This document shows positions 6,142 through 62,085 of a stretch of DNA of 64,000 nucleotides, piece by piece. The translations under genes were made by a program, and so were the position numbers. The stretch is from the NCBI GenBank assembly GCA_964419925.1, contig CAYQPR010000002.1, positions 2,002-66,001 of the forward strand, read 5' to 3'. Source of the stretch: Candidatus Woesearchaeota archaeon (GTDB taxonomy: Archaea > Nanobdellota > Nanobdellia > SCGC-AAA011-G17 > GW2011-AR20). The stretch's first letter is position 1, and every line of letters starts with the position of its first letter. The notes below the pieces were generated by a model. That model did no database searches, was not told where the DNA came from, and saw only the letters and a list, made by a program, of their open reading frames with translations.

Positions 6142-7137
6142 TTACAACATTAAAGAAACAACAATAAAGTAAATTATAATTGATAAAACATCAGATATTA
6201 TCGTTGCAAATGGTCCACTACCTAAAGCAGGATCTTGTTTAAATACTTTAAATAAATAAGTTATAAGCAAAGACATAAAACTTGATAAAACTAAAGTGAT
6301 AAGCATCGCTAAAGAAATAACAAGAGCAATATATGGCTCTCCCCAAAATAAATCAATAATAATATAAGCAATAAAACCGATTAAAACACCTAAAATGATT
6401 CCAATAAAAGTTTGTCTAAAAAAATATGGAACTATCTTGAATTCTTTTCCAAAAATTGTCAAATCCCTAATTAATAATGTTTGTTGCTGTATTCCAAGAG
6501 CACTGCTCATATAAACAACCGCAGGAACAAAAAAAGCTAATATCAAATGTTGATTTAATATACTTTCATATTTGCCAATAAAACCTGCAGCAAGTAAAAC
6601 ACCGATTAAACCAACAATTAACCATGGAATTCTATGTTCTAAATTTAATAATAAAGGAACATGCATCGTATCTTCATATTCCAAATGACCTTTATGAATA
6701 CCTGCAGAATAAAGAAGCCTTTTATGTAAAGCATGATGTAATATAGATAAAATTTTATTTGTTAAAATAACTCCAATTAATTTTCCTTCTTCAACAATTG
6801 GAATTGCTTTTAAATTATGTTTCAAAGCTAAATTTGCAATTTTTTGTTCTTCAGCATCAGGAGAAACGGAAATAATATTTTTCTCCATAATATCTTTAAT
6901 CTTAGTTTTTTTAGGAAGTTCAAAAACTTTTTTTATAGAAGTAACCCCATTTAAATTACTTTTATCATCAATAACATAAATATAATCTATTGTTTCAAAA
7001 TCTTTAACGTTTTTATTAATAAATTTTTGAATATCGCCAATTAAATAAGAATCTGGAACAACAGGAACATTTTTAGTAATGTAATCAACAGCAAAATTTA
7101 CCTTACCTTCTTTTTTAATAGAACTTTCAATCACCAT
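6142..7137 (-). CDS. mgtE: magnesium transporter MgtE
   Basis: N-terminal CBS-pair region followed by the C-terminal multi-TM MgtE channel domain. Confidence 0.7.
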   Translation of the reverse strand: MVIESSIKKEGKVNFAVDYITKNVPVVPDSYLIGDIQKFINKNVKDFETIDYIYVIDDKSNLNGVTSIKKVFELPKKTKIKDIMEKNIISVSPDAEEQKIANLALKHNLKAIPIVEEGKLIGVILTNKILSILHHALHKRLLYSAGIHKGHLEYEDTMHVPLLLNLEHRIPWLIVGLIGVLLAAGFIGKYESILNQHLILAFFVPAVVYMSSALGIQQQTLLIRDLTIFGKEFKIVPYFFRQTFIGIILGVLIGFIAYIIIDLFWGEPYIALVISLAMLITLVLSSFMSLLITYLFKVFKQDPALGSGPFATIISDVLSIIIYFIVVSLML

Positions 7138-7173: not shown

Positions 7174-8466
7174 TTAAGGAACATATCTTAGCATCGTTCT
7201 AGGGTAAGGTATTGCATCCTTGATATTGTCTAAACCACAAATCCAAGATATAATTCTTTCAACACCCATTCCAAATCCACCATGAGGAACACTTCCATAT
7301 TTTCTTGTATCCAAATAAAATTCATAATTCTTTGGATTTTCTCCCTGCTCTTTTAATCTAGAAATTATTTTATCTTTATCGGGCTCTCTTTCACTTCCAC
7401 CTATAATCTCACCATAACCTTCAGGAGCAATAAAATCACAACCAAAAACAACTTTCGTATCTTTTGGATCTTCTTTCATATAAAATGCTTTAACAACTTT
7501 AGGATAATGTGTTACAATTATTGGAGTATCGTATAACTTACTTAATTCATCCTCTTCAATTGTCCTTAAATCTTTTCCCCAATCAATTTTGATTTTACAT
7601 TTTTCTTTTAATATTTTTAAAGCATCAGTATAAGTCATTCTTGGAAAAGGTTTTTTTAATATTGGTTCCAATTTCTTAACATCTCTTTCTAAAAGTTTCA
7701 ATTCTTCTTTATTATTTTCCAAAACTTCTTTAACAATATTTTTAATTAAATTTTCGCCATGATCTTGAATATCTTTAAAGGAAGCCCAAGCCTGTTCCAT
7801 TTCAGCATGCCAGTACTCCGTCAAATGTCTAGACGTCTTAGATTTTTCAGCTCTAAAACTTGGTGCGATGCAATACACTTTTTCTAAAGCAAAAATAGCT
7901 GGCTCAGCATACAACTGCCATGTTTGTGCCAAAAATAATTTTTTTCCAAAATAATCTACATTAAATAGCGTGCTTCCACCTTCACACTGAACACTTTGTA
8001 TTATGGGACTTTGAAATTCATAAAAACCTTCATTTCTAAAATAATCATGTATTGCTTTAAAAATAGTACTCCTTATCTTTAATATAGAGGTCATCTTTCT
8101 GCTTCTTAACCATAGATGTCTATTATCTAATAATAGTTCAGGACTTTGATCTTTATTTATTGGAAATATCTCTGCAAATTGAATAACATTTATTTTACTA
8201 ACCTGAATTTCATATCCTGTTGGAGCTCTTTTATCTTCCTTTATTTCTCCTTCAATTTCTAAAGAGCTTTCAATTAAAATTTTATTAGAATCTTCCCATT
8301 CTTTCTTTGTAACTTTATCTTGTTTAATTACACATTGAATAATATTTGTAGAATCTCTAACCACTAAAAAAATCATGTCTTTCTGTTTTCTTTCACGATG
8401 AACCCATCCGTGAATACTTACATTACCTTTTCCCTTTTCAATTGCTTCTTGTATTTGAATAAACAT
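7174..8466 (-). CDS. asnS: asparaginyl-tRNA synthetase (class IIb)
   Basis: N-terminal OB anticodon-binding domain (GWVHRER). Class II motifs FRAE...RHLTEYWHAE and GGSER are present. The HLTE(F/Y) region favours AsnRS over AspRS. Confidence 0.65.
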   Translation of the reverse strand: MFIQIQEAIEKGKGNVSIHGWVHRERKQKDMIFLVVRDSTNIIQCVIKQDKVTKKEWEDSNKILIESSLEIEGEIKEDKRAPTGYEIQVSKINVIQFAEIFPINKDQSPELLLDNRHLWLRSRKMTSILKIRSTIFKAIHDYFRNEGFYEFQSPIIQSVQCEGGSTLFNVDYFGKKLFLAQTWQLYAEPAIFALEKVYCIAPSFRAEKSKTSRHLTEYWHAEMEQAWASFKDIQDHGENLIKNIVKEVLENNKEELKLLERDVKKLEPILKKPFPRMTYTDALKILKEKCKIKIDWGKDLRTIEEDELSKLYDTPIIVTHYPKVVKAFYMKEDPKDTKVVFGCDFIAPEGYGEIIGGSEREPDKDKIISRLKEQGENPKNYEFYLDTRKYGSVPHGGFGMGVERIISWICGLDNIKDAIPYPRTMLRYVP

Positions 8467-8518
8467 ACTTTTACGTATTTTGGTATATTAAAAAGATTTT
8501 GGTTTAGTTAGTTTAAAA

Positions 8519-9417: not shown

Positions 9418-10695
9418 TTATGGTGTTAACCTATCTCGATCCCTTGCAAACAAAACCGCTTCCCTAATATTATCTAACTTTAATAATGTCATAGTAAATC
9501 TTTCTAAACCAATTGACCATCCAGAATGCATCGGAGCTCCTGTTCTAAAGCTATCAACATAAAATTCAAAATTATCCGGATTTAATTTTTTATCTTTTAA
9601 TTGTTTTATTAAAATCTCGGGAATGTGAACGCGTTGTCCTCCAGAACTTATTTCAACTCCACCATACAAAGCATCAAATCCCTTACTCAACCTCTCTCTT
9701 TTATCTAAACTTTTTGGAAAAATATAGAATGGTTTTAATGTAGAAGGCCAAGAATGGGTAAATACAATCATATCCGGATACATTTCACATAATTTTCTTT
9801 CAGATTCAGGTGTAAAATCTTCTCCAATTTTTAAACCAACAAGTTTAATTGCTTCATCATAACTTAAGTATTTTGCTTTTGGAATTTTCAATTTTAAATT
9901 TAAATTTTCTAATTCATCTTTACATTTTTCAATTACATTTTTAACAATAAATGCAACACAATCTTCTAAATATTTCATAACTTTAAAATCATCTGCAAAG
10001 GCAACTTCAATATCCATTTGTCTTGATTCATTCAAGTGTCTTATTGTATTATGTTTCTCCGCTCTCCAAACGGGAGTTATTGTAAATACCCTTTCTAAAG
10101 AAATTGCACATAATTGTTTATATAATTGAGGACTTTGTGCTAGATAAGCTTTTTTCTCAAAATACTTAACTTCAAATAACTCAGTTCCACCCTCGGAAGC
10201 ACTTGCAATAATGCTTGGAGGTTGTATCTCAATAAAATTTAATTTTCTAAAAAATTCTCTAAAAGAACTTGAAATTTCGCTTTGAATTTTAAATATTGCC
10301 TTAACCTTTTTCTTCCTTAAATCTAAACTCCTATGTTCTAATCTCGTGCTTAAATCAGTAATGATATCTTTATCTTTTTCATAAACTTGTATTGGAAGAT
10401 TTTCAGCCTTATTCAATAACTCTAATTCATCAACACTGATTTCAAAATTATTAATTGTTAATTCAGAAGATGTTAATTTAGCTTCTTTTATTTTTCCCCT
10501 AATTGAAATAACACTTTCTAATGTTAATTTCTCATCAAAACCTTTAGCTTCATTTTTTATAACACATTGAACGATTCCAGTTATATCTCTTAAAAGAATA
10601 AACTTGGCTTTGGGTAATTCTCTAATATCATGAACCCAACCTTTCAATAAAACTTCCTTTTTATCTTTAAGTTCATTAACGTAGCTTCTTTCCAT
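9418..10695 (-). CDS. aspS: aspartyl-tRNA synthetase (archaeal type, class IIb)
   Basis: GWVHDIRE OB domain, then WRAEKHNTIRHLNE...DIEVAF and GGQR class II motifs. The HNTxRHLNE region is typical of archaeal AspRS. Confidence 0.7.
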   Translation of the reverse strand: MERSYVNELKDKKEVLLKGWVHDIRELPKAKFILLRDITGIVQCVIKNEAKGFDEKLTLESVISIRGKIKEAKLTSSELTINNFEISVDELELLNKAENLPIQVYEKDKDIITDLSTRLEHRSLDLRKKKVKAIFKIQSEISSSFREFFRKLNFIEIQPPSIIASASEGGTELFEVKYFEKKAYLAQSPQLYKQLCAISLERVFTITPVWRAEKHNTIRHLNESRQMDIEVAFADDFKVMKYLEDCVAFIVKNVIEKCKDELENLNLKLKIPKAKYLSYDEAIKLVGLKIGEDFTPESERKLCEMYPDMIVFTHSWPSTLKPFYIFPKSLDKRERLSKGFDALYGGVEISSGGQRVHIPEILIKQLKDKKLNPDNFEFYVDSFRTGAPMHSGWSIGLERFTMTLLKLDNIREAVLFARDRDRLTP

Positions 10696-15822: not shown

Positions 15823-17229
15823 CTATTTTTTATTTATTAATTCTATTAACTTCTTGCCATCAATTTTACCTTTATATTTTGACATTAACATCCCCATCAA
15901 GGCATTTACGCTTAGTTCTTTATTTTTAGATTTAAGTTCTTTAATTTCTTTTTCAATTTCATTTAAACTAACAGATTTATAATCTTCAAGATTAATTTTT
16001 TCATTTTTACTTAATTTAACAAAAATTTCATTAACAACATCTTTTGTTATTTTACCTTTATCCAATAAATCTAAAACATAATCTAAACGTTTATTATTAA
16101 AATTACTAACTAAAATACTTGCTAATAAACCAGAACTAATCTCATTATACTTTTTAGAATAATCATTAAAATCTATCTTACTATGGATCATTTCAGAAGC
16201 CAGTTCATTACTTAATCCATATCTTTCTTTTAATTTATTTATCTTATCTTCAATCAGTTCAGGGATTTTAACATTCTCCAATAATTCTTTACTAACCTCT
16301 ATAGTTGGAATATCCGTATCCGGGTACATCCTTGCACTTCCGGGCAAAGGTCTCAAAAATGAGGTTGTCCCGTTTTCATTCGCCTTTCTTACCTCTTCTT
16401 CAACTTTTTTATCTTTTTCAACTAAACTAAACTGCCTTTGAATTTCATAATCAATTATCTTAGGCATTGTTCTTAAATCCTGAAAACCTTTTATCTCAAC
16501 CCTTGATCCATCTAAAATACTTAAATTAACATCCTGTCTTATTGTTCCAATTCCCCTTAAAATATCAGAAAAACTTCTTAAGATCATTCCTAATTTTTCA
16601 GCAGTTTCCTTTGCACCATCAGGGGTTTTAATGTCTGGCTTAGTCATTATCTCAATTAAAGGAATTCCCTGCCTTGATAAAGAATAATAAGTTTTATTTT
16701 CTTCATTTTTCTCAATTTTACATGCATCTTCCTCTAAACATAGACTTGCAATCTTAACCTTTCCAAAAGAAGTTTCAATAAACGAATCTTCACTTTCATA
16801 ACCAACTAACATTGTTCTTTGAAAAGCGCTACAAGCACTCCCATCCGTAATTATCTTTCTCATAACATAAATTTCTTTAGGAATGTTTAATCTAAACAAT
16901 TTAGCTAAAGATAAAGCCGTAACTAGTGCATCTTGATTAACCTGATATGGTGGCTGTTCATCACAATCGACTAAACAATATTCTCCTTTATAACCGTGAT
17001 AAATAAAATCTTTATTTTTAGATTCTTCAAATTTAGCTGCAACATCAACTTTTCCAGTTTCACCTGAAGAAGCTCTTAATTTCCTTTTAAATTCGATATC
17101 CAATTCTTTTTCTTCAAATTTAGTAGAGCAGTTGCAGAATAACTTTTTATCTGAAAGTTGCTGATGAATCTCAAGTCCAATCTTCAAGTTTAAATCCTTA
17201 TAGTCAAACATTTTCAATATCCTCATCAA
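15823..17229 (-). CDS. gatE: Glu-tRNA(Gln) amidotransferase subunit E/B-family (GatE-like, short form). The likely start is the Met at 17211.
   Basis: N-terminus YKDLNLKIGLEIHQQL...KLFCNC is the GatB/E signature. It is paired with gatD on the same strand. Confidence 0.7.
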   Translation of the reverse strand: MMRILKMFDYKDLNLKIGLEIHQQLSDKKLFCNCSTKFEEKELDIEFKRKLRASSGETGKVDVAAKFEESKNKDFIYHGYKGEYCLVDCDEQPPYQVNQDALVTALSLAKLFRLNIPKEIYVMRKIITDGSACSAFQRTMLVGYESEDSFIETSFGKVKIASLCLEEDACKIEKNEENKTYYSLSRQGIPLIEIMTKPDIKTPDGAKETAEKLGMILRSFSDILRGIGTIRQDVNLSILDGSRVEIKGFQDLRTMPKIIDYEIQRQFSLVEKDKKVEEEVRKANENGTTSFLRPLPGSARMYPDTDIPTIEVSKELLENVKIPELIEDKINKLKERYGLSNELASEMIHSKIDFNDYSKKYNEISSGLLASILVSNFNNKRLDYVLDLLDKGKITKDVVNEIFVKLSKNEKINLEDYKSVSLNEIEKEIKELKSKNKELSVNALMGMLMSKYKGKIDGKKLIELINKK

Positions 17230-17710
17230 TAATTTTAACTATTTTAGTAATATTATTTACAAAAAGTTTTGCATTTTTTAATGAATCTTCAGCATATTCC
17301 TTATTTGCCTGCGAAATTGTTTGATAAGTAAATAAACCTCTTTTAAATTTCAAATCTTTAAAAATTTCAAGCAAATGATCTGCCCTTATAATCATCTTTT
17401 GATAAATTTCAAGAAGTTTCACATCTATGATTCTGGTCTTAACAAAATTATTATCAAATTCATCATAAGTCTTTTTATGAACTTCAGGAAATGTTGTTTT
17501 AATATCTTTAGTTAATAAAATTGCCTTTGCTGAGTAAAATATCGCATAATAAGAATGAGAAATAACTGCACTGTAAAAACTAATCTCTAAAGGTATTTTC
17601 AAAAATTCTTTTTTCTTGTTATCATTACTTATATCTCTAAGCGTTTCAGCGATTATTAATTCATTTTCAGATCGATCAAGAAAATTTTTTGTTGTTAAAT
17701 CCATTCTCAA
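17204..17710 (-). CDS. HEPN-domain protein (toxin of a HEPN/MNT pair)
   Basis: All-helical 168-aa protein with the ISHSYYAIFYSAKAILL helix typical of HEPN. It overlaps the MNT gene and the gatE start. Confidence 0.55.
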   Translation of the reverse strand: MRMDLTTKNFLDRSENELIIAETLRDISNDNKKKEFLKIPLEISFYSAVISHSYYAIFYSAKAILLTKDIKTTFPEVHKKTYDEFDNNFVKTRIIDVKLLEIYQKMIIRADHLLEIFKDLKFKRGLFTYQTISQANKEYAEDSLKNAKLFVNNITKIVKIIDEDIENV

Positions 17711-18305
17711 TAACCTCTTGCATTAATTTAATATAAATCTGTCCTCCAGTTAATATAATGAAGTTTCTTACTATCCCTTTACCATAATTAGCTTCATTAT
17801 TTAAAAGCATTTCCTTAAACTCAGAATATTTAAAAACATATAAATGTATTTGTGGAATATTCATTTCTGCCTTAAAGGATAGTTCAGCATAAACTCTTTT
17901 AGGTTCAAACAAATCATTGATAAGCACAACAACATCAAGATCAGATGTTTTTGTAAATTTTCCGTTTGCATAACTACCAGTTATAATAAAAACATAATCC
18001 TTATAAGAAATATTGCTCATAAACTCTTGTAAATCTCGATAAGGTAAACTATCCTTATGCCAACCATAATACTCTAAAACAAAACCTGCAAAAATTCTTG
18101 ATTTTACTATAAAATTTAATGAGTAAACCGAGAGATTACCTACTTTTTCTAATAGTAATATTTTTTCTTTTAATAAATTCTTAATTACCTTATCAACATA
18201 GCTTTTTGATTTCTTTTTTGAAGAATTTTTTAATTCTGTAAAAGTATATTTTTTCCAAGGTTCTTTTGCAAATAAATATAATAATTCTGAATCTTTTTTT
18301 AGCAT
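17676..18305 (-). CDS. minimal nucleotidyltransferase (MNT) with N-terminal winged-helix domain (antitoxin partner of HEPN)
   Basis: GSYANGKFTKTSDLDVVVL is the GS...DxD polymerase-beta-type nucleotidyltransferase motif. It overlaps the HEPN gene. Confidence 0.7.
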   Translation of the reverse strand: MLKKDSELLYLFAKEPWKKYTFTELKNSSKKKSKSYVDKVIKNLLKEKILLLEKVGNLSVYSLNFIVKSRIFAGFVLEYYGWHKDSLPYRDLQEFMSNISYKDYVFIITGSYANGKFTKTSDLDVVVLINDLFEPKRVYAELSFKAEMNIPQIHLYVFKYSEFKEMLLNNEANYGKGIVRNFIILTGGQIYIKLMQEVIENGFNNKKFS

Positions 18306-18309
18306 AGTA

Positions 18310-18351
18310 ATTCCCTATTTTTAGGATTACTATTCCCTATTTTTAGGGTTA
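18310..18351. promoter_or_regulatory. Tandem operator-like repeat: two 20-nt units (attccctatttttagg[a/g]tta), each holding the palindrome CCCTA-TTTT-TAGG(G). Unit spacing is 22 bp, and they sit between a TATA-like box (atataaatat, 18351..18360) and the MNT start codon.
   Basis: Read directly in the sequence. Unit 2 is a perfect palindrome. Confidence 0.6.
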
Positions 18352-18373
18352 TATAAATATTTCGATTCAAAAA

Positions 18374-19666
18374 CTAATCTAAAAACTCTTTTGTTAAATG
18401 ATCATTAATTTCGCCACGTAAATTTTTACCAATTAAACCTTTAACTTCTTTAGGATTATAATTTCCTAACAACCAAGCTAACTTAACAAAAGCAACTTCT
18501 GGTAACATATCTTCTCCAGAAATAATCCCAATTTCTTGTAAATCCCTCCCTTTAGAGTAAACATTCATGTTAACCCGACCAAATAAACATTGAGAAGTCA
18601 TCACCACAACCATACTTTTATTTAAATCTTGCAAAGCTTTCTTAATCTTAGCATGTTCCTTAGTTTCATTATCAATAACATCTCCAGGGGTATGACCCAA
18701 TCCGGTTCCTTCAATGATCAAACCCTTATAACCCTTGTAAGCTAAAAATTGATTAGCGGTCATATTAATCGTAATTTTAATCAAAGCAACTTTTTCTTCA
18801 AATTTATCTTTAATTACTAACTTTTCTCCCTTTCGTTTATAATCTTCCTTAATGAAATTTATATTTTTAGTTCTATAATCAACTTGTGCAATTACATTAT
18901 CATTAATTGGCTTAAAGGCATCTCTTCTAGAGGTATGCATCTTACGAGTTTTACATGCTGGAAAAATTGAACAGGTTTTATCATTTATTGAATCATGCAT
19001 ACATATTGCAACTCCAGAAAAATCAGTTTTAGTTATAAACAAAGAAGCACAAACTAAATTCATCGCAGCATCACTTGAACCCCTATCAGAACTTCTTTGA
19101 GATGCCACCAAGATTACAGGAACCGGACAAGATTCTAAAACAAAACTCAAAGCAGCACTTGCAACAGCTAAATTATCAGTTCCCATTCCAACAATTACGC
19201 CCTCAACCCCAGATTTAATTTCATTTTCAATCTCCTTAGCAAGAACACCAAAATGTTTAAATCTTAAATCATCACTCCACATTTTTCTAACAAGTTTACT
19301 TTTAAAGTTTGCAATCTCCTTAAGTTCAGGAAAAATAGATAAAAATTCTTCAGGAGTAAACTTTGAAATTACCCCTCCGGTCTCATAATCTACCTTAGAA
19401 GCTATCGTTCCACCGGTGTGTAAAATAGAAATGGTTTTTAATCCTTTTTTAAAATCAACTTTTTCTTGATTTTCTTTTTTTTCAGAAATTTTTTTTATTA
19501 AATTAATTTTTTTTATTTTATTTTTTTCAATTCCTAAATTGTATCCAGAATTTAATTTTAAAGTTAAAATTTCTTTATTTGTCGACGGCAAAATTGTTCC
19601 TTTCAAATTTTCTTTTTCAGAAAAAATTTCAACGTAATCACCGATTTTATAATTTTCTTTTTTCAT
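18374..19666 (-). CDS. gatD: Glu-tRNA(Gln) amidotransferase subunit D
   Basis: C-terminal L-asparaginase-like domain (HTGGTIAS, GMGTDNLA). The N-terminal small domain is typical of GatD. Confidence 0.8.
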   Translation of the reverse strand: MKKENYKIGDYVEIFSEKENLKGTILPSTNKEILTLKLNSGYNLGIEKNKIKKINLIKKISEKKENQEKVDFKKGLKTISILHTGGTIASKVDYETGGVISKFTPEEFLSIFPELKEIANFKSKLVRKMWSDDLRFKHFGVLAKEIENEIKSGVEGVIVGMGTDNLAVASAALSFVLESCPVPVILVASQRSSDRGSSDAAMNLVCASLFITKTDFSGVAICMHDSINDKTCSIFPACKTRKMHTSRRDAFKPINDNVIAQVDYRTKNINFIKEDYKRKGEKLVIKDKFEEKVALIKITINMTANQFLAYKGYKGLIIEGTGLGHTPGDVIDNETKEHAKIKKALQDLNKSMVVVMTSQCLFGRVNMNVYSKGRDLQEIGIISGEDMLPEVAFVKLAWLLGNYNPKEVKGLIGKNLRGEINDHLTKEFLD

Positions 19667-46842: not shown

Positions 46843-47661
46843 TTATAGGGAATTAATATCAAGAATACCTTTTAATAACTTTCGTCTTTGTTCTAAGGTG
46901 GTGTGTATTGGGCAGAATCCAAACCTCTTCCATACAAAATATTTGCTGTAATGTTTTGGGTTGCTAAACCCAATAATGGTAATCCATTTTTCCAAATTTT
47001 TCTTGCCAACAATCACAACACGATAATGTTTAAACACCCTATTATTTCGCTTACGTTTTCCTTTCTCTAAATAACTATGTATTCCCAACTTGTTTAATAA
47101 CACCTTTAACTGTTTTGTTAATTTCTCTGAGGCAAATTGACCTCCAATTAATGGGTAATGATGTTTCTTAAATTTGGTATCTTTTCTTATTTTAAACACC
47201 AAATAAAAATCCGTATCAGCAATTCCCCTAATTAATGCAGAAATAATTTTATTATCCTTAGTTTCAAAAAAATATTTGGGTATTTTATAAGAATTATCCA
47301 ATTTATTTCCAGGTGTATATTTCATATTTTTAACGAAAAAATTAATTATAGATTTAGAGGTTACACAGATTTTTATTCCATTTGTTCCAGAAATTTTACG
47401 AATATATGGCCTTACGTTAAAAAGATTGTAAAATAAATCTGATATTATAATGTTATGATAATCTAAATCTTCTTGAGCATGTCCGTATACAAATAACTCA
47501 TATTTTCTTCTGTTAGATGGTTTTTCTTTTAAATGGATGCACCCGTCTCCAATCATTAAACCAAATAATTCTGCCAAATCAGAAGTTAATTTATTAGGCA
47601 AATGAACATCTCTTTTTATATCTGAATTACTGAATGAAATTTTTGAGTTATCAAATATCAT
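46843..47661 (-). CDS. double-motif LAGLIDADG homing endonuclease, free-standing
   Basis: Motif 1 LAELFGLMIGDGCI and motif 2 ISALIRGIADTDFY. 272 aa. A TATA-like TTTATAA lies about 30 nt upstream. The ORF ends exactly where the tRNA gene begins. Confidence 0.75.
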   Translation of the reverse strand: MIFDNSKISFSNSDIKRDVHLPNKLTSDLAELFGLMIGDGCIHLKEKPSNRRKYELFVYGHAQEDLDYHNIIISDLFYNLFNVRPYIRKISGTNGIKICVTSKSIINFFVKNMKYTPGNKLDNSYKIPKYFFETKDNKIISALIRGIADTDFYLVFKIRKDTKFKKHHYPLIGGQFASEKLTKQLKVLLNKLGIHSYLEKGKRKRNNRVFKHYRVVIVGKKNLEKWITIIGFSNPKHYSKYFVWKRFGFCPIHTTLEQRRKLLKGILDINSL

Positions 47662-47760
47662 TTTTATATCAAAAATCTCTTCTTACTTATAAAGTTGACC
47701 CGCGAGGTTGTCACTTGGACAGTTGGGAAAAAATGTATATTTTAAAGAATATAAATAAAA

Positions 47761-47835
47761 CGGGCCTGATGGGATTTGAACCCACGATCTTCAGCTTAGA
47801 AGGCTGACATCCAATCCAGGCTAGACGACAGGCCC
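47761..47835 (-). tRNA. tRNA-Arg (anticodon TCT), no intron
   Basis: Acceptor GGGCCTG/CAGGCCC. Anticodon arm TCAGC-CTTCTAA-GCTGA. T-arm GTGGG-TTCAAAT-CCCAT. Discriminator G. Confidence 0.75.
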
Positions 47836-47879
47836 ATAATAAAAACCACCTCTATGAAGATATTTAAACCTTTTCAAAA

Positions 47880-53887: not shown

Positions 53888-55498
53888 ATGCAAAAAAACG
53901 TTGCTTTTTTAACATTTTCCTTGTTCGTAGTTCTAATTGTTGTAAACGCTTGTAGCAATGTAAAAGGAATAGAAATAAATCAGAAATTTGAGCCTAAGTC
54001 AGAATTAATAATAAATGAGGGATTAAATAAAGATAAAATCATTGAAGGGATTAGTTTTTATCAGAAATTAAAATATAATTCAGAATACCTATTGACTGAT
54101 GAAGGTGGTTTGATAATCTCTCAAAGTGAAAATGTTTCTCCAGTTCTTAAAAAAATATTTAACAAAGAAGGTAATCAAGGTGGAAAAGATTTACTCAAAT
54201 TGGTTATTCACGGAAAGAAGTTAGATTCTAAAAATTGGAGGAAAATAATTTCGGTTTTGATACTTAGAGACAATGTTCCAATAGCAAGTTATAGAAATGA
54301 TTTCAATAATCAAAATGATTTAACATTAGAGATACCAAATGTTAAAGGAAAAAATTTAGAAATTTATTACGTGACAAGAATTTTTGATTTAGACAATCCA
54401 AAAAATTCTAATATAATATTTTACGGCTCAAAACTGCCAGACGATCCTGAAGAATATGAAATATATGAAAAAGAATCAAAACCAATAAGAACAAATTTTA
54501 AAGAGATTTCAAAAAGTATAAACCTAAAAGAAATTTATGAATTTGAGATTGCAATAAAACCTCTTGACATTAATATGATTGATACATATTCTTTTTTAAA
54601 TGATTACTCAGCAACAGAAGCTTATTTTTATAATAATAATTTTTTTGAAGAAGTCTTTATTTCACAAACCGGAGGCGAAATAGGTAAATCAATCTCTAGA
54701 TCAAGGGGGTTAATTACTGCACAACACAAATTTATGGAATTAGAAAATTTAACGTATAATTATAGTTCTTCTGATTTCGAGAGACGTAGTATAAAGTGGT
54801 ATAAATCGTTTAATTTTAATCCAGATGGATATCCTGGACATTTAGATTTTGTGTTTAGCAATTTTTATGATACAGACTATGAAATAAATGGATTAGATAC
54901 AATGAAACCAATGTACCAAATTGGGTTTTCTGAGATCCCAAAGACAACAAAATTATACTACAATAAAGATTCAAACATTCTTACGGGTACTGGGGGCCAT
55001 TGGCCTAATAAACCGGATTATGAAATCACAAGAGGATTATCAGAAAGTTTTGTTTTCAATATTGAAAATGCTCCAAAACTTAATAAAGAAATTGCATTTT
55101 ATAAATCTCCTTTAAAACTTAAAATCAACGTTGCTTATCCGGAAAATCCAGAAGAATTAAAACAGATTTTTTATGGTTATTTTAAAAGCAATTATAATTA
55201 TTATTCTCCAATTCCTTTAGATTATGTTCTTGTTTTAGGTTATATTTATCCTTCCTTCAGATTCTATACTCAAACAAGTCTAAATCTTCCAGATAATACT
55301 ACTAAAGTGTCAGAAGGCTCTCCTTTAATAAATTGTAATTATCCAACAGAATCAAATCCACCAATTTCTTACTGCCAAAAAGGAATCTATCAAATAACTT
55401 GGGATGCTTCTGACATCGTAAAAAATGGTCAAAAAAAGATAACAAAAAAAGTTTGTTATACTGGAACGTACTTCTCAACAGATTTAGAACTATGTTAA
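53888..55498 (+). CDS. secreted protein of unknown function (signal peptide, Cys after the hydrophobic core)
   Basis: MQKNVAFLTFSLFVVLIVVNAC. 536 aa, Asn/Tyr-rich. Confidence 0.5.
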   Translation: MQKNVAFLTFSLFVVLIVVNACSNVKGIEINQKFEPKSELIINEGLNKDKIIEGISFYQKLKYNSEYLLTDEGGLIISQSENVSPVLKKIFNKEGNQGGKDLLKLVIHGKKLDSKNWRKIISVLILRDNVPIASYRNDFNNQNDLTLEIPNVKGKNLEIYYVTRIFDLDNPKNSNIIFYGSKLPDDPEEYEIYEKESKPIRTNFKEISKSINLKEIYEFEIAIKPLDINMIDTYSFLNDYSATEAYFYNNNFFEEVFISQTGGEIGKSISRSRGLITAQHKFMELENLTYNYSSSDFERRSIKWYKSFNFNPDGYPGHLDFVFSNFYDTDYEINGLDTMKPMYQIGFSEIPKTTKLYYNKDSNILTGTGGHWPNKPDYEITRGLSESFVFNIENAPKLNKEIAFYKSPLKLKINVAYPENPEELKQIFYGYFKSNYNYYSPIPLDYVLVLGYIYPSFRFYTQTSLNLPDNTTKVSEGSPLINCNYPTESNPPISYCQKGIYQITWDASDIVKNGQKKITKKVCYTGTYFSTDLELC

Positions 55499-55518: not shown

Positions 55519-57006
55519 TTATTGCAAAGCTAAAATTTGCCTTACAATTTCAAGAAGTTGTTTATACAACTCTTTCAACTTTATTTCTTTATTAACCGGT
55601 TCTGGTGTAGGTTCTGGAACAATTATTCCATTACCAACATTAACGGTCAATGAAGATTCAGCTGAGTTTCCTTGATCATCACTTACAGTAAATCGAACAT
55701 AATAAGTTCCAGGATTACTATAAGAATGTGTAAATGTAGCCTCTTGACTTCTTATCGATTCTGAATTACTTGAAGTTAAAGGAGCAAACCAATTTTTCTC
55801 TCCCCAATCAACAGAGTAATAAAGATTTTTTCCTTCGTCATGAGCTTTAACAACCCAAGTTGCTTTTTCATTTACATTTAGGTTTTGAGGCCCACTTACT
55901 CCATCAATTACAGGATTACTATTTAATGATTTTACGTTAACAATTTTAGTTAATACATTATTTTCTTTATTTATGTCGTTATTTGTACCAACTTTAACTG
56001 TAAATTTATAATCTCCTGCATTAAAGTAAGTATGTGAAGTTTTCAAAGTTATTTTTTCTCCAGCTTTAATTACTTGAGGAGTTGCATAACCTTGTCCTGC
56101 ACCTTCACCGTAATTATACTCAACACTATAACTATAAGCGTCTCCGCCATAATTTGCTACTGTAATCACAAAATCAACTTCTTTTCCAGCATAAGCTTGA
56201 TTAAAGTTAATATCTGAGATTGCTAAGTCAGGATAAGTATTTATCACATTTCCATTAACATCAACTGTTAATGTACTTTGAGTACTTTCTCCTTTTTCAT
56301 CACTTACTGTAAATGTAACTGTGTAAGTTCCAGAATTTTGATATGAATGAGTAAATGTTGAGGTTTGTGTTTTTGATGCAAATGCTTTTTCTTGAAGACC
56401 TTCATAAAGCCTTATTTTTTCTCCCCAATTAACAGAATAACTTAAGTAATTTCCATCAGGATCATAAGCATTTATTTGCCATTTTCCAACTTCATTTACA
56501 TTTAAGTTTTGAGGTCCTGAAACACCTGTAATAACTGGTGCTTGATTTTTAGGTTCAGTTTTATGTGCAATTTCATAACTGAATGTAACCCAACTTCCAG
56601 CATCTCCTCTAGTTACATATTTAGGAGTTAACTGTAATAAGTCTCCATTAACATCAATTTGTTCTAATGTTTTACCAATTTCAACATTTTGATAAGTTGC
56701 ACAATTTCTAAAAGACCATTCTGGCCAGTTCTTAGAACATATCTGTAAATCGACTGACGCCATTAAGTTAGCATCTGTAGGTCCATCTATAACATACCAA
56801 TCTCTAACTTTATTTAAAATTATATCAAAATTAGAGTCAGGAATACTATATTTACCACCTTCATTTAATTCGAATGAGTTATACGTTTTTATAACTCCAC
56901 TTGGATCATTAACAATCATTGGACTACCAAGTACATTTAATGGTAGTGTTAATACCGTTAAGATCATTAACATTGCAATTATTTTGTTTTTCATTTTATC
57001 CTCCAT
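55519..57006 (-). CDS. secreted protein with repeated PKD/Ig-like domains
   Basis: Signal peptide. Two copies of VSGPQNLNVNE...W.V.A.D..GN.L.YSV.WGE, the PKD-domain consensus. Confidence 0.6.
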   Translation of the reverse strand: MEDKMKNKIIAMLMILTVLTLPLNVLGSPMIVNDPSGVIKTYNSFELNEGGKYSIPDSNFDIILNKVRDWYVIDGPTDANLMASVDLQICSKNWPEWSFRNCATYQNVEIGKTLEQIDVNGDLLQLTPKYVTRGDAGSWVTFSYEIAHKTEPKNQAPVITGVSGPQNLNVNEVGKWQINAYDPDGNYLSYSVNWGEKIRLYEGLQEKAFASKTQTSTFTHSYQNSGTYTVTFTVSDEKGESTQSTLTVDVNGNVINTYPDLAISDINFNQAYAGKEVDFVITVANYGGDAYSYSVEYNYGEGAGQGYATPQVIKAGEKITLKTSHTYFNAGDYKFTVKVGTNNDINKENNVLTKIVNVKSLNSNPVIDGVSGPQNLNVNEKATWVVKAHDEGKNLYYSVDWGEKNWFAPLTSSNSESIRSQEATFTHSYSNPGTYYVRFTVSDDQGNSAESSLTVNVGNGIIVPEPTPEPVNKEIKLKELYKQLLEIVRQILALQ

Positions 57007-57068
57007 AAGTTTTAATTAAGAGATAGTAAACTAATGATGCCTATATACTTTGTTTAGACTTTAAGGTA

Positions 57069-57096
57069 GTTTGAAGTCAAAATAAAGGTTTATAAG
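57069..57096. repeat. 28-bp direct repeat, left copy (gtttgaagtcaaaataaaggtttataag)
   Basis: Identical to 57986..58013. Confidence 0.8.
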
Positions 57097-57163
57097 AGAA
57101 AATTTATAGATTAAGATTTTAAATCAGATTGAGTTTAAATCATAGAAAAGTTTATATACTACA

Positions 57164-57679
57164 TTGTGCACATTAAGATACATGATTATAGTAAAGGATG
57201 CAATGGTGTTAATACATTTAGCAAAACTCTCAATTCTAGAAAAGAGTTGTGAATATTTTAAAGACGTATTAATTCCAGAATTAGTTTATGAAGAAATTAA
57301 TAAATATCCCGATTATGATGACACCAAAATAATAAATAGTTTAATAGAAAAAAAGAAAATTACAAAAAAACAAATAAAAAACATATCTTTAATAAAAAAA
57401 GCAAACGAACTTAATATAAACCACGGAGAAGCTGAAGCTGTCTCATTGTATTGGCAAGAAAATGCAGATTTACTAGCCACAGATGACGATAACGTAAGAA
57501 AAAGAGCAATGATATTAGATATAAAGATTATTGGGACATTAAGTATAATCCTAAGTCTCTACAACAAAAATAAAATAACAAAGGATAAAATAATTTCAAG
57601 TTTAGAAAAATTAAAAGAAATTGGTTGGTTCAACGATTTTATTATTGATAATATTTTAATGGAGGTTAACAGAAAATGA
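57164..57679 (+). CDS. PIN-domain protein of the DUF3368/COG2405-like family (toxin). The track start is TTG; the likely ATG is at 57182.
   Basis: MIIVKDAMVLIHLAKLS...HGEAEAVSLYWQENADLLATDDDNVRKRA matches the family pattern GEAEAI..A......LLLDD..AR. Confidence 0.6.
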   Translation: MCTLRYMIIVKDAMVLIHLAKLSILEKSCEYFKDVLIPELVYEEINKYPDYDDTKIINSLIEKKKITKKQIKNISLIKKANELNINHGEAEAVSLYWQENADLLATDDDNVRKRAMILDIKIIGTLSIILSLYNKNKITKDKIISSLEKLKEIGWFNDFIIDNILMEVNRK

Positions 57680-57975
57680 ATAGACCGTTAGGTATAAGAT
57701 TAGATAGATCACTTTTACAAAGAGTAGATCAAATGGGCAAAGAAGAACTTGTTGATAGAAGTACAATAATAAGAAACCTAGTAAATATAGGCTATAAAGA
57801 AATGATTAAATCCAAAGCAGCAGAGAAATATGTTAAAGGAAAAATAACATTATCTGAAGCAGCAAGACAAGCAGAATTAAGTATATTCGAAATGGAAAAA
57901 TACTTAGTTGGACAAGGATTTAAATCTCAGTATTCTATGAAAGATTTAAAAGAAGAATTGAAAAATATACGATAA
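57676..57975 (+). CDS. UPF0175-family putative antitoxin
   Basis: 99 aa, helical, with the LSEAARQAELSIFEMEKYL motif. It overlaps the PIN gene by 4 nt (ATGA). Confidence 0.5.
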   Translation: MNRPLGIRLDRSLLQRVDQMGKEELVDRSTIIRNLVNIGYKEMIKSKAAEKYVKGKITLSEAARQAELSIFEMEKYLVGQGFKSQYSMKDLKEELKNIR

Positions 57976-57985
57976 CTTCAACCTG

Positions 57986-58013
57986 GTTTGAAGTCAAAAT
58001 AAAGGTTTATAAG
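57986..58013. repeat. 28-bp direct repeat, right copy
   Basis: Identical to 57069..57096. Confidence 0.8.
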
Positions 58014-58034
58014 TAATAAAATAATATCTAAACT

Positions 58035-58292
58035 ATGGAAATTTTTAAACCAAATAAAAATAAAATAATGATTACTTTTGTAATCTTAGTAGTTTATGAG
58101 ATAATTATTTTTATTCAAGGTTACAATTTTGGAAGCAGATTTGATTGTGGATTAAATCAAATATGTAAATCTTCAATTGAATACGGTTTTGAATATGTTA
58201 AAAATTCAGTATTTAATATAAACATAATTCCTACAATTATAATCTCTTATTTAATTTCATGTGCAATCTTTTCAATAGTTAAGAAAAAATGA
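58035..58292 (+). CDS. small membrane protein
   Basis: 85 aa, two hydrophobic helices. Confidence 0.35.
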   Translation: MEIFKPNKNKIMITFVILVVYEIIIFIQGYNFGSRFDCGLNQICKSSIEYGFEYVKNSVFNINIIPTIIISYLISCAIFSIVKKK

Positions 58293-58897
58293 ACGAAGAA
58301 AAATATATCCTAGTGAACTTAGAAGAAGATAAGTCAAAAGATTTAGCTAATGTAATCAGTAACTCGACTTCAAGAAAACTTTTAAATTTTCTAGCGGATA
58401 AAGAAGAAGCATCCGAAACAGAAATTTCTAAAGAATTAAAATTACCTCTATCAACAGTTCACTATAATTTACAGCAATTAAAAAAAAGTAAATTAGTTGA
58501 AACAAAACATTTTATGTATTCAGATAAAGGGAAAAAAATAGAATATTATAGTGTTGTAAAAAAATTTATTGTTATCGCACCAAAGTATTCTTCAAACTTA
58601 TTAAAGAAATTATTGCCTTTGTTTTTAATATCGGCAGGGGTATCATTGATTATTCAAAAATTTTATGGATTTACAACAAAAACATTAAGTTACACTCAAG
58701 ATGTTGTTAATAAAGTACCTGAAGGAACGCAGGGTGCAGCTTCAAGTTTAGCCGATAAAGCTACGGAAGAAACAACAAAACAAATAGTAAATATTGTAAC
58801 GCAAGTTCCAAATTATTATGGATATTGGTTTTTTATTGGTTCCTGGACAATTTTATTAGTTTATCTGATGATTAATTTAGTTAAAAAAAGAAGATAA
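58289..58897 (+). CDS. winged-helix (ArsR-like) transcriptional regulator with a C-terminal transmembrane anchor
   Basis: LLNFLADKEEASETEISKELKLPLSTVHYNLQQLKKSKLV wHTH. C-terminal TM YWFFIGSWTILLVYLMINLV. Confidence 0.5.
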   Translation: MNEEKYILVNLEEDKSKDLANVISNSTSRKLLNFLADKEEASETEISKELKLPLSTVHYNLQQLKKSKLVETKHFMYSDKGKKIEYYSVVKKFIVIAPKYSSNLLKKLLPLFLISAGVSLIIQKFYGFTTKTLSYTQDVVNKVPEGTQGAASSLADKATEETTKQIVNIVTQVPNYYGYWFFIGSWTILLVYLMINLVKKRR

Positions 58898-60203: not shown

Positions 60204-61481
60204 ATGGATATAAAACAATATCAAAATTATCTTAAAAAATTTAAAGTTTTAATCCAAGAGATTAGAAGGAATATTAATAAATCAGATAAAAAAGGATTTT
60301 TAGAATATATTGGGCTTCTGGTAAATTCTGCAGAACTACAAATATCAGAAATTATATCAAATCACATTTTTAAAACAGATTTTACACATAACACAATCTC
60401 CATACTATTAGATATCATGCGCAAATTTAAATCACTATCAGAATATTACGATTATAAAATAGAAATGACAGAAAAAGAATGTAAAATTAGTTTTTTAAGA
60501 AACATGGATGTTTTTGAAAGAAGTATAGATATAGAATTAAAAATAATAAAAGAGATTGCTGAAGATCACAATCCAAAAATCAGCCACGCCATGAATATTC
60601 AAGCATGGATGTATGAAAAAGAGTTTGATAAAGTTTTACAATTAATTGAAAAAGTAATTATAAATTACGAAGAACTCAAAAAAAATAAGTATCAATTAAA
60701 GAAATTGTTTCAAGAGGTTAATGATATCCTTAAAGAAATTCCAGATACACCCAATTCAGCAATAACCGGAGAAGTATGTACTGTAACTTCAAGCCCGGAT
60801 AAACATGCAATTCTTTTTTTAAGTAAATTAATTTCAAGAGGAGAACATAAAAAAATAAATGGAAAGGTTATCCTAGAACTTGGATGTGGGTTACATAACA
60901 CGATACCTTATTCAATTAAACAAAAATATTTTCCGGAAAGCAATTATATTGGAGTAGATGCCCATCCGCTGATCTCAATACTAAGATATCTATCAATAAA
61001 ATATCCAAACAAAAAAACAATAATATCCAATTTATTAATACATGTAAACTCAACTGAAAGAGAAGAGGGGGTAATCTATGACTTGGCAAGATTAGATACT
61101 TATGTTTATGGTTCAATATTTGATATTAAAATAAAAAAAGGAACAGTAGGTATTTTAATAATCGATAGCACAATAAGTTTAGACAATCGAGGTGTAGATG
61201 TCACAGAGAGTAAGGCGATGGAGATGGCAGAAAAATATTTGAATGAAGGAGGATATTATATAGATAGAGATTTTAATTATTTTACGGCATTTAAGTTGAT
61301 TAATGGAAAGTTAAGCCGAGTCGCATCATTAAAATTTGATAAAACCTACTATACCAAAGATCCATTTAGTTGGTATGGTGAATATGAAGAATTTAATAAT
61401 GATGAAGAATTCAAAGATGTGGAATCGGTAGAGGAATCAAAAGAAATAAACAAGATTTATCCAAGAAATATCTTTAATTAA
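60204..61481 (+). CDS. two-domain protein: N-terminal helical domain of unknown function fused to a class I SAM-dependent methyltransferase domain
   Basis: VILELGCGLHNT (motif I) ... YIGVDAHP (acidic residue at the end of beta-2). Confidence 0.5.
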   Translation: MDIKQYQNYLKKFKVLIQEIRRNINKSDKKGFLEYIGLLVNSAELQISEIISNHIFKTDFTHNTISILLDIMRKFKSLSEYYDYKIEMTEKECKISFLRNMDVFERSIDIELKIIKEIAEDHNPKISHAMNIQAWMYEKEFDKVLQLIEKVIINYEELKKNKYQLKKLFQEVNDILKEIPDTPNSAITGEVCTVTSSPDKHAILFLSKLISRGEHKKINGKVILELGCGLHNTIPYSIKQKYFPESNYIGVDAHPLISILRYLSIKYPNKKTIISNLLIHVNSTEREEGVIYDLARLDTYVYGSIFDIKIKKGTVGILIIDSTISLDNRGVDVTESKAMEMAEKYLNEGGYYIDRDFNYFTAFKLINGKLSRVASLKFDKTYYTKDPFSWYGEYEEFNNDEEFKDVESVEESKEINKIYPRNIFN

Positions 61482-61549: not shown

Positions 61550-61822
61550 TTAATTATTATAGATTTTATCATGATGATCAAAATCAGTAAAATAAACAAA
61601 GTCATTCTTTTTATCATATTTGAATAATAAAACAAAACTTCCAACATGAATCCTTTTGTATTCCTTTAGATTGCCTCTCAAATTTTTATAATGCTCGATG
61701 TCTGTAATACTCAAAATTTCGTCCATCTTATTAATCAAGTTTTCACAAAGCTGTTTATCCTTCTTTTCTAATTTTTGAAGAATCCTATCAAAATTCTTAC
61801 TAGTTTTATAAGGTCTAGGCAT
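61550..61822 (-). CDS. relE: RelE/ParE-family toxin
   Basis: HYKNLRGNLKEYKRIHVGSFVLLFKYDKKNDFVYFTDFDHHDKIY is the RelE/StbE pattern. Confidence 0.65.
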   Translation of the reverse strand: MPRPYKTSKNFDRILQKLEKKDKQLCENLINKMDEILSITDIEHYKNLRGNLKEYKRIHVGSFVLLFKYDKKNDFVYFTDFDHHDKIYNN

Positions 61823-61824
61823 TT

Positions 61825-62085
61825 TTATTTTATTCGCAGATTTTTTCTTAATTCTTCAATAGAATTGAATGTTTTACCGTAACCTTCTTTTTCAATTTTT
61901 CTAATCTTCCTAAGATATTCGGGTCTTAACTCAGGTTCTAATTCATTCTCGCCATACTTTTTAAGAAACAATCGCAAAGCATCATTCTTATTCCTTAATC
62001 TATACTTAGCTTTCATAAGATTAAGGAGTTGATCCTCATCTTCATTAAACATTACCAAAGCTTTTATCATCTTATTACTTTCCAT
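61825..62085 (-). CDS. putative antitoxin partner of RelE
   Basis: 86-aa ORF ending 3 nt upstream of the relE start. Confidence 0.45.
   Translation of the reverse strand: MESNKMIKALVMFNEDEDQLLNLMKAKYRLRNKNDALRLFLKKYGENELEPELRPEYLRKIRKIEKEGYGKTFNSIEELRKNLRIK

Follow-up and report, generated by a model that had tools for sequence, protein, structure and literature searches.

Within the 64,000-nucleotide stretch of a Candidatus Woesearchaeota archaeon contig (CAYQPR010000002.1) that was analysed here, and which we refer to as the window, a predicted PIN-domain toxin gene and a UPF0175 antitoxin-type gene are enclosed by two perfect 28-bp direct repeats. One repeat, the promoter/operator region, the PIN gene and the UPF0175 gene together make up a unit of 917 bp. 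Our preferred reading, to which we give a probability of about 0.7, is that this unit is an integrated minimal toxin-antitoxin (TA) cassette without an integrase, the att-type junctions of which would have been formed by Campbell-type integration with a recombinase supplied in trans. COG2405 (PIN, DUF3368) and COG2886 (UPF0175) have been described as a predicted type II TA family (Makarova 2009, PMC2701414; Matelska 2017, PMC5499597); the family itself is already known, and what appears new is the proposed mode of mobility.

A predicted toxin-antitoxin pair between perfect direct repeats

The 28-mer GTTTGAAGTCAAAATAAAGGTTTATAAG occurs in direct orientation on the + strand at 57069-57096 and again at 57986-58013. 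These are the sole two matches in the 64-kb window, and still the only two when up to three mismatches are allowed; in 100 dinucleotide shuffles of the window it was matched 0 times. The positions, the orientation and the very low likelihood of a chance origin, all claimed in the original prediction, were thus borne out. Exact scans of GTDB species genomes and of IMG/VR gave 0 matches and hence neither further copies nor other cargo, and the prospect that the 28-mer might prove a common intergenic motif, named at the outset as a ground for abandoning the idea, did not materialise (two copies in the window, none in the genome and viral collections). A palindrome, TTTGA-AG-TCAAA, lies inside the 28-mer; the palindrome TTTGANNTCAAA was tried as a regulatory motif of the window and rejected, being not enriched (17 matches against 19.4 expected).

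Leftwards the repeat extends imperfectly to 39 nt, with 35/39 positions identical (family D10 of the repeat finding). The extension reads ACTTTAAGGTA in the left copy (57058-57068) and ACTTCAACCTG in the right copy (57975-57985), with all four mismatches grouped where the right copy adjoins the cassette; that copy opens with the final nucleotide of the UPF0175 stop codon (TAA, 57973-57975). A small inverted repeat, ACTTCAA/TTGAAGT, is present at the right junction (57975-57981 and 57988-57994).

Reading of the open reading frames (ORFs) and their Pfam matches agreed with the earlier claim that the two copies enclose only the PIN gene, its overlapping UPF0175 partner and their TATA region; the interior ORFs are these two alone, with neither integrase nor transposase between the repeats. 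A scan for recombinase domains in 38 window ORFs, 20 of them of 241-468 aa, gave no match. Against Pfam DUF3368 the PIN ORF scored 18.5 bits, under the cut-off of 27.3. Residues D6, E83, D101 and D102 were invariant in an alignment of 37 sequences (A2), the AlphaFold model of the protein had a predicted local distance difference test score (pLDDT) of 96.1, and its best Foldseek matches were 2mdt (SSO1118), PAE2754 and VapC toxins. By modelled fold and conserved acidic residues, the first ORF is thus a predicted genuine PIN nuclease. The UPF0175 ORF scored 32.1 bits against its Pfam family, over the cut-off of 27.9; its model was all-helical (pLDDT 84.6), with weak matches to the ribbon-helix-helix proteins CopG/VapB and to Fis-type helix-turn-helix (HTH) proteins. 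Upstream of the pair, an operator-like palindrome has its core TGTGCACA at 57165-57172, and the PIN ATG (57182) stands ~6 nt beyond the palindrome, a promoter-to-ATG spacing that would fit a leaderless-type mRNA.

The insertion point is the divergent promoter region between a gene for a PKD surface protein and an operon of an 85-aa ORF and an HTH regulator. The 3' half of the 28-mer, AAAGGTTTATAAG, reads as a B recognition element (BRE) and TATA box, and the TATA of the right copy (58006-58012) stands 23 nt ahead of the ATG at 58035, where established promoter geometry would lead one to expect a leaderless archaeal transcript. The cassette promoter has the same geometry (TATA 57151-57158, ATG 57182). 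Because the repeat contains its BRE/TATA, the 85-aa/HTH operon would keep an intact promoter despite an insertion between TATA and start, and the promoter in the left repeat copy would read into the cassette.

The site occurs empty

When metagenome contigs were scanned for the 28-mer, one contig from another sample was found, L004 (OBEQ012857702.1). It carries a single 28-mer that joins the left flank of the window to the start of the 58035 gene, which is the arrangement that the original prediction had proposed to look for as an empty site. The left flank is identical to the window at 40/45 positions, with the 18 nt adjoining the repeat fully identical, and the right flank is identical at 47/47, into the start of the 58035 gene. 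A close relative thus has the unoccupied site, with one repeat copy. To the left of the empty site the PKD gene is missing; L004 instead has, at positions 1-1085, DNA of ~40% G+C that encodes DUF3179 and a putative phage metallopeptidase.

The Logan assembly of the sample SRR8863434 (k=31) matches the window sequence exactly here, and since this independent assembly reproduces the sequence, the repeat pair is not an assembly artefact. Its contigs break at the repeats: L003 ends at 57096, L001 covers 57067-58015 (949 bp) and L002 starts at 57986, and the overlaps between them are the 30-mers TA[28] and [28]TA, where [28] stands for the 28-mer. A 28-bp repeat alone cannot branch a k=31 graph, because its two sites share no 30-mer, and breaks at TA[28] and [28]TA therefore point to a coexisting empty allele TA[28]TA in SRR8863434. 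Judging from contig ends rather than reads, empty and filled alleles thus probably coexist in this sample. A circle or tandem junction, GG[28]AG, predicts contig ends at 57069 and 58013, unlike those observed.

In the relative L098, the HTH regulator is 59% identical and synteny is kept (PHP, LeuRS ... HTH, small ORF, Nre, AlaRS), and its HTH operon has no PIN-UPF0175 cassette upstream. Taken together, three independent lines, namely L004, the breaks in the Logan assembly and L098, establish the locus as an insertion, and they support the reading as a minimal mobile cassette that the original prediction had put forward.

A conserved module with flanking repeats in homologous loci

More than 330 homologues of the PIN protein were found at 50-72% identity, nearly all in metagenome-assembled genomes of DPANN archaea, Thermoplasmata and Hadarchaeota, the DPANN names being Woese-, Pace- and Nanoarchaeota, from which the window can be placed in DPANN; 79 species-level loci were fetched. 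PIN precedes UPF0175 in all 75 loci with both genes detected, and in the other four the PIN gene alone was detected. A TATA-like motif lies upstream of PIN in 57/78 loci, typically at a distance of ~30 nt from the ATG. In 58/78 loci the hexamer GTGCAC was present 10-27 nt ahead of the PIN start, as compared with 1.5% of random 63-nt windows; it falls within the consensus palindrome TACAATGTGCACATTGTA, of which most remaining loci have close variants, as read from the listing (cf. alignment A3). Such a conserved palindrome would most simply be an autoregulation site, and we infer binding by UPF0175. The Thermoplasmata loci mostly have the GTGCATAT variant. This conservation of the operator-like element extends over several archaeal phyla, and for a non-coding stretch it is unusually strong, given that the proteins are only 45-60% identical. 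An identical PIN protein (P0003) was seen with two variants of UPF0175 (L089 as against L090, L091 and L092), one of 99 aa that overlaps PIN and one of 95 aa that does not, suggesting recombination within the module.

With a Smith-Waterman local alignment score of at least 13 as the threshold, flanking direct repeats were found in 14/71 loci plus the window, as against 1.5% of 454 shifted controls. When the 350 nt upstream were compared with the 350 nt downstream, the longest exact match reached 14-20 nt in five loci; in 323 shifted controls the longest were a single 16-nt match and six 12-nt matches. The repeats of the 14 loci are 19-70 nt long and differ in sequence from locus to locus. Their placement is regular, the upstream copy ending 29-107 nt before the PIN ATG and the downstream copy starting 0-39 nt past the UPF0175 stop, save for one locus at 70 nt, and for the 13 loci examined, from Woese-, Pace-, Aenigm- and Iainarchaeota, copy-to-copy spacing came to 879-994 bp, with no pseudogene remnants inside. 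No integrase, resolvase or transposase family was found twice among 145 neighbouring ORFs of 66 loci. The short TATA-rich repeats (22 nt and 13 nt) of L084-L094 might reflect promoter consensus, and they were left out of the evidence.

The repeats of these loci correspond to housekeeping-gene 3' ends or tRNA-gene 3' halves (Table 1), the duplicated piece in the window being a promoter. At L069 both copies encode KLLKFLTKLA and a stop, and 6/6 nucleotide differences are synonymous; at L045 both encode RDIKRYLRID(SS/TA)APKNLEAVRVK, followed by the stops TGA and TAG; at L074 the stops TAG and TGA stand at an identical position. Codon differences pooled over four loci were 17 synonymous and 7 non-synonymous, whereas random placement of 31 substitutions gave a mean of 20.8 non-synonymous and a value of 7 or fewer in 0/20,000 simulations. 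This synonymous bias, together with the kept frame and stop, speaks for an evolution of both copies as functional gene ends, and therefore for the arrival of one of them with the cassette from another genome. As read from the codons, one coding-repeat copy in the homologous loci is a foreign surrogate gene end rather than a decayed target-site duplication, as expected of Campbell-type integration by an element that bears a surrogate of its target; integrases insert elements into tRNA genes and gene 3' ends in this manner. By extension, an element-borne copy is probable in the window, where only the four clustered mismatches serve.

Arrays of cassettes behind one gene end

In four loci (L102, L064, L035 and L014), different TA or defence cassettes are separated by copies of one gene end, which are numbered from X0 or X1 in Table 1. 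In L102/L103, X2 and X3 share 88% identity over 126 nt, and X3 is a longer, frameshifted remnant. In L064, 4/4 copies encode (I/A)VFP(I/L)LVAE(T/M)FGK(K) and a stop with differing codons, the stops being TAA, TGA, TAG and TGA. Other cargo between copies of the same repeat, which the original prediction had suggested looking for, is thus present in these four loci with their own repeats, but not with the 28-mer of the window. The window itself has only two repeat copies as regards tandem accretion, and the array partners in the four loci are likewise without integrases.

At positions 2417 and 3362 of L102, inside X1 and X2, contigs of at least four assemblies start or end (L106-L111), and among them the Logan contig L111 is cassette-sized at 946 bp. 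These shared break points suggest presence/absence or allele heterogeneity of the cassette in several samples. Homologue contigs of ~950 bp were also considered as repeat-bounded units; L095-L097 were rejected as mere truncated fragments, and only L001 and L111 are of cassette size.

Table 1. Features of the cassette locus in the window, and repeats and arrays at homologous loci
Feature	Coordinates	Strand	Details
Left junction repeat (attL-like)	57058..57096	+	Perfect 28-mer at 57069-57096; host-type extension ACTTTAAGGTA; BRE/TATA-like AAAGGTTTATAAG, TATA 57089-57095
Cassette 5' leader/promoter, 85 nt	57097..57181	+	BRE-like GAAAAG 57145-57150; TATA TTTATATA 57151-57158; operator-like palindrome 57161-57176
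Predicted PIN-domain toxin gene (COG2405/DUF3368 type), 165 aa	57182..57679	+	Pfam, alignment, model, Foldseek
UPF0175 (COG2886) antitoxin-type DNA-binding protein, 99 aa	57676..57975	+	Start overlaps PIN stop (ATGA), 4 nt
Right junction repeat (attR-like)	57975..58013	+	Perfect 28-mer at 57986-58013; cassette-type extension ACTTCAACCTG; TATA TTTATAA 58006-58012
Host operon with duplicated promoter	58035..58897	+	85-aa membrane-type ORF 58035-58292; HTH_20/ArsR-type regulator with C-terminal membrane segment 58289-58897
Left neighbour, PKD/CARDB surface protein, divergent, outside cassette	55519..56994	-	ORF and Pfam
L045 repeat			Last 23 codons and stop of FttA/aCPSF1-type gene
L074 repeat			End of ProRS gene
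L069 repeat			End of FAD oxidoreductase gene
L070 repeat			End of Lrp/AsnC regulator gene
L064 repeat			End of deoxyhypusine synthase gene
L102 repeat			End of gene for phosphoenolpyruvate (PEP)-utilising enzyme
L015 repeat			tRNA-Lys 3' half, anticodon loop to 3' end
L076 repeat			Part of tRNA-Met
L102/L103 array			PEP-utilizers gene end X1, PIN-UPF0175, X2, MNT-HEPN, X3
L064 array			Deoxyhypusine synthase end X0, Polbeta nucleotidyltransferase and small ORF, X1, PIN-UPF0175, X2, Fic, X3
L035 array			X1, PIN-UPF0175, X2, AbiEii and partner, X3
L014 array			X1, PIN-UPF0175, X2, MNT-HEPN and AAA_14/DUF4143 ATPase, X3

A model for integration and the points against it

In the model that we propose, a circular or terminally repeated intermediate of the form [UPF0175 stop]-X'-[promoter] would recombine reciprocally with the chromosomal site X, the cassette-borne site copy X' sitting just past the UPF0175 stop codon. 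The host-type extension stands on the left and the cassette-type extension on the right, which therefore places the crossover within the 28 identical bases, and the four leftward mismatches would represent differences between the cassette-borne and the host copy. The host gene would stay functional, with the duplication restoring a promoter in the window and a gene 3' end or tRNA half in the relatives. The cassette would bring its own autoregulated, leaderless-type promoter, the TATA and palindrome of which are presumably bound by the UPF0175 protein, and TA 'addiction' would counter-select loss through recombination between the repeats.

Movement would occur in trans. A trans-acting site-specific recombinase is favoured over RadA-type short-homology recombination, because in some old insertions (L074; X1/X2 of L064) X and X' are ~73% identical and identical runs are of only 8-9 nt. 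For recent events such as that in the window, where 28-39 nt are identical, short-homology recombination is possible. The repeats often end at or beside BRE/TATA (the window; X2/X3 of L102; L069), and one might speculate that promoter boxes join in occasional illegitimate jumps.

Several points weigh against this interpretation. The empty site in L004 is read from ~120 nt at one end of a contig of 1.2 kb, the unrelated left part of which could stem from a further insertion into this hotspot, from rearrangement or from chimeric assembly. No excised or circular form was seen, and the Logan contig boundaries show no circle junction. About 80% of the family loci have no detectable repeats, and the closest cassettes (L084-L094, at 70-72% PIN identity) contain no sequence resembling the 28-mer, even at 6 mismatches. 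The 28-mer was found around no other cargo in the window, genome, viral and metagenome contig scans. The repeat in the window is non-coding, and the argument from synonymous differences comes from the homologous loci. No recombinase was identified among the 38 window ORFs or the 145 neighbouring ORFs of homologous loci, and the mechanism gives no account of how a new target copy is first acquired.

Alternative explanations

The original prediction allowed for either attL/attR sites or a target duplication, and the family-wide evidence favours junctions of the attL/attR type and disfavours a staggered-cut duplication. Had the cassette entered by a transposase-like or repair-mediated route, at staggered cuts with a spacing of 28 (or 39) bp, both repeat copies would derive from the host, which is consistent with the perfect identity of the 28 bp, with exactly one copy at the empty site and with the fact that a cassette-borne att copy was not directly sighted. 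However, the cassette has no terminal inverted repeats, its ends AGAAAATTTATAG... and ...CTTCAACCTG not being inverted copies of each other, and repeat length is not fixed across the family but varies between 19 and ~126 nt. The mismatches, moreover, are grouped at that end of the right copy which adjoins the cassette, and coding copies differ mainly synonymously with stops kept, where a decaying duplicate should show mostly changes of the non-synonymous type (L069: 6/6 synonymous). Target-site duplication is thus an unlikely origin of the repeats. A transposon, insertion sequence or miniature inverted-repeat transposable element was rejected for want of terminal inverted repeats and of a fixed duplication length. 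Insertion could also be envisaged as the work of the two encoded proteins, with the PIN nuclease and the DNA-binding UPF0175 protein catalysing or triggering it, e.g. through cleavage of the empty site followed by repair. The repeat-bounded unit is of constant size (879-994 bp) with nothing else inside, no other recombinase lies nearby, and the 3' boundary of the cassette abuts the UPF0175 stop in most loci. The fold, however, is that of an ordinary VapC-type PIN protein with no similarity to recombinases, and MNT-HEPN, Fic and AbiEii modules are bracketed by like repeats in the same arrays, a mechanism that is thus not specific to PIN-UPF0175; we consider self-mobility very improbable.

Recombination sites of integrons, attC, are imperfect palindromes of 55-140 nt that fold as single-stranded DNA (ssDNA), with R'' RYYYAAC and R' GTTRRRY. 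The window unit might then be an integron-type gene cassette in a cluster of attC sites lacking an integron integrase (CALIN), with the integrase encoded elsewhere. Integrons and integrase-less attC clusters have been reported in Archaea, including Nanoarchaeota, with TA systems as the commonest annotated cargo (PMC9668308), and the homologous loci do contain repeat-separated cassette arrays. Yet ssDNA folding z-scores of 10 repeat regions were -1.8 to +1.0, i.e. unstructured; the 28-mer starts with GTTTGAA, a misfit to GTTRRRY, has no R''/L''-L'/R' architecture and offers as its sole inverted repeat a 7-bp stem; and the array repeats are in-frame C-termini of the anchor gene with a stop, or tRNA 3' halves, as in att-site mimicry. 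No IntI or tyrosine recombinase was found in the 38 window ORFs, and none recurs among the neighbours of the 66 loci. This explanation accordingly has little to commend it. Finally, the gene pair might be an old resident and the 28-mer a promoter/operator motif used twice, for instance a site of the adjacent HTH regulator together with BRE/TATA. The 28-mer does have a palindrome and a BRE/TATA at leaderless distance from 58035, and short TATA-like repeats flank other TA pairs too, e.g. in L098. But the 64 kb contain only two copies, matches to the palindrome motif are no more frequent than expected, an identity of 28/28 goes far beyond the likeness of a promoter consensus, the left copy lies 85 nt upstream of a gene with its own conserved TATA and operator, and an empty allele exists (L004). 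A locus without any mobility is thus hardly credible.

Relation to known systems

For integration of a minimal TA cassette at att-type sites, the closest known concept is that of the cis-mobilizable element (CIME) and of accretion at att sites. CIMEs, and tandem accretion at the att sites of ICEs (integrative and conjugative elements) and IMEs (integrative and mobilizable elements), are said to have been described in Firmicutes by Pavlovic in 2004 and by Bellanger in 2011. The likeness lies in attL/attR direct repeats, in the absence of own integration genes, in a duplicated target at a gene or tRNA 3' end and in tandem accretion with att copies. CIMEs retain attL/attR after loss of integration and transfer genes and have decayed from larger ICEs or IMEs (PMC5704250). 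They are bacterial decay remnants of several kb, whereas the cassette is a constant 0.9-kb unit of a promoter and two genes in several archaeal phyla; the cassette loci hold no remnants of a larger element, no integrase-bearing partner was seen within 4 kb, and in the window the duplicated piece is a promoter rather than a gene end.

Integron cassettes and archaeal CALINs (PMC9668308) resemble the cassette in having one or two genes, no recombinase, TA or defence cargo with its own promoter, arrays and mobilisation in trans; they differ in that the cassette repeats have no attC hairpin or GTTRRRY core, that there is no attI/intI platform and that the repeats copy a neighbouring gene end, tRNA half or promoter. 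With SSV-type and pNOB8-type integrase elements and tRNA-targeting islands the cassette shares a tRNA 3' half or gene 3' end as integration target, a surrogate gene end in attP and repeats of tens of bp, but those elements encode an integrase and extend over many kb, in contrast to a toxin and an antitoxin only. Integrative mobile elements exploiting Xer (IMEX) likewise have no recombinase of their own and use a host enzyme, Xer, at a 28-bp site, dif; the 28-mer, however, is not dif-like (arms 5/11), and the cassette sites vary by locus, being gene ends or promoters and not a single terminus site.

As in the COG2405-COG2886 family described before, both protein families are adjacent and co-directional, and an 'exceptional horizontal mobility' of TA systems has been noted (PMC2701414, PMC5499597). 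The toxin gene comes first in every locus of the present clade with both genes detected, which sets it apart. Repeats of att type or arrays are not described as a mechanism of mobility in PMC2701414 or PMC5499597, and in the literature on TA cassettes flanked by direct repeats in archaea we found no description of such an arrangement.

Genomic setting

The window (27.6% G+C) is ordinary chromosome, with genes for aminoacyl-tRNA synthetases, GatDE, FtsZ, ribosomal protein L10, SecF and Nre. A second TA-like pair on the - strand (61550-62085), just upstream of AlaRS, consists of a DUF2683 ORF (86 aa) followed by a weakly YafQ/RelE-like ORF (90 aa); a flanking direct repeat was looked for around this pair in the window and was not found. 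In the Nre-AlaRS slot of the relative L098, two vapBC pairs take its place, and a 17-nt TATA-like sequence, TAAA(A/T)TATATAAA(G/T)ATT, occurs three times there (7034-7050, 7754-7770 and 8460-8476), bracketing each of the two tandem pairs. This sequence matches the AlaRS promoter and may be a promoter duplication as in the window, or mere promoter consensus. Large ORFs with no Pfam match lie on either side of the cassette locus (53888-55498, 536 aa; 60204-61481, 425 aa); in L098 their positions hold other genes, and the LeuRS-AlaRS stretch is thus variable on a conserved backbone.

Elsewhere, a free-standing LAGLIDADG_3 ORF of 272 aa (46843-47661, - strand) was seen ~100 nt from the sole tRNA gene of the window, tRNA-Arg(TCT) at 47760-47836. 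The ORF at 25944-27047 matches FA_desaturase_2, of the soluble acyl-ACP desaturase type, very strongly (E 2e-121); such an enzyme is unexpected in a DPANN archaeon and possibly a horizontal acquisition. Two paralogous class II tRNA synthetases of the Asp/Asn/Lys type (430 and 425 aa; 7174-8466 and 9418-10695, - strand) are 1 kb apart, near GatD/GatE-type genes at 15823-19666.

Significance

The window offers a clean but modest single case, comprising a filled site, an empty site and their probable coexistence, and its value lies in the family-wide pattern. The rule suggested for the family is that a cassette carries a short mimic of its target, spares the host gene and can stack with other defence cassettes. 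Quite tentatively, and as a view that we hold to be doubtful at present, PIN-UPF0175, MNT-HEPN, Fic and AbiE modules could together form an undescribed class of integrase-less integrative cassettes in DPANN and other archaea, which would carry their own surrogate targets, build integron-like arrays behind housekeeping genes and depend on trans-acting recombination.

How bare two-gene TA modules move between genomes has mostly been left unexplained so far. A class of the kind just described, if real, would account in general physical terms for the 'exceptional mobility' long noted in TA and defence modules. If the rule suggested for the family holds, it would point to an unrecognised trans-acting recombination activity in genome-reduced archaea. 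Repeated, codon-conserved gene ends would then serve as a signature for mobile cassettes and integration hotspots in metagenome-assembled genomes.

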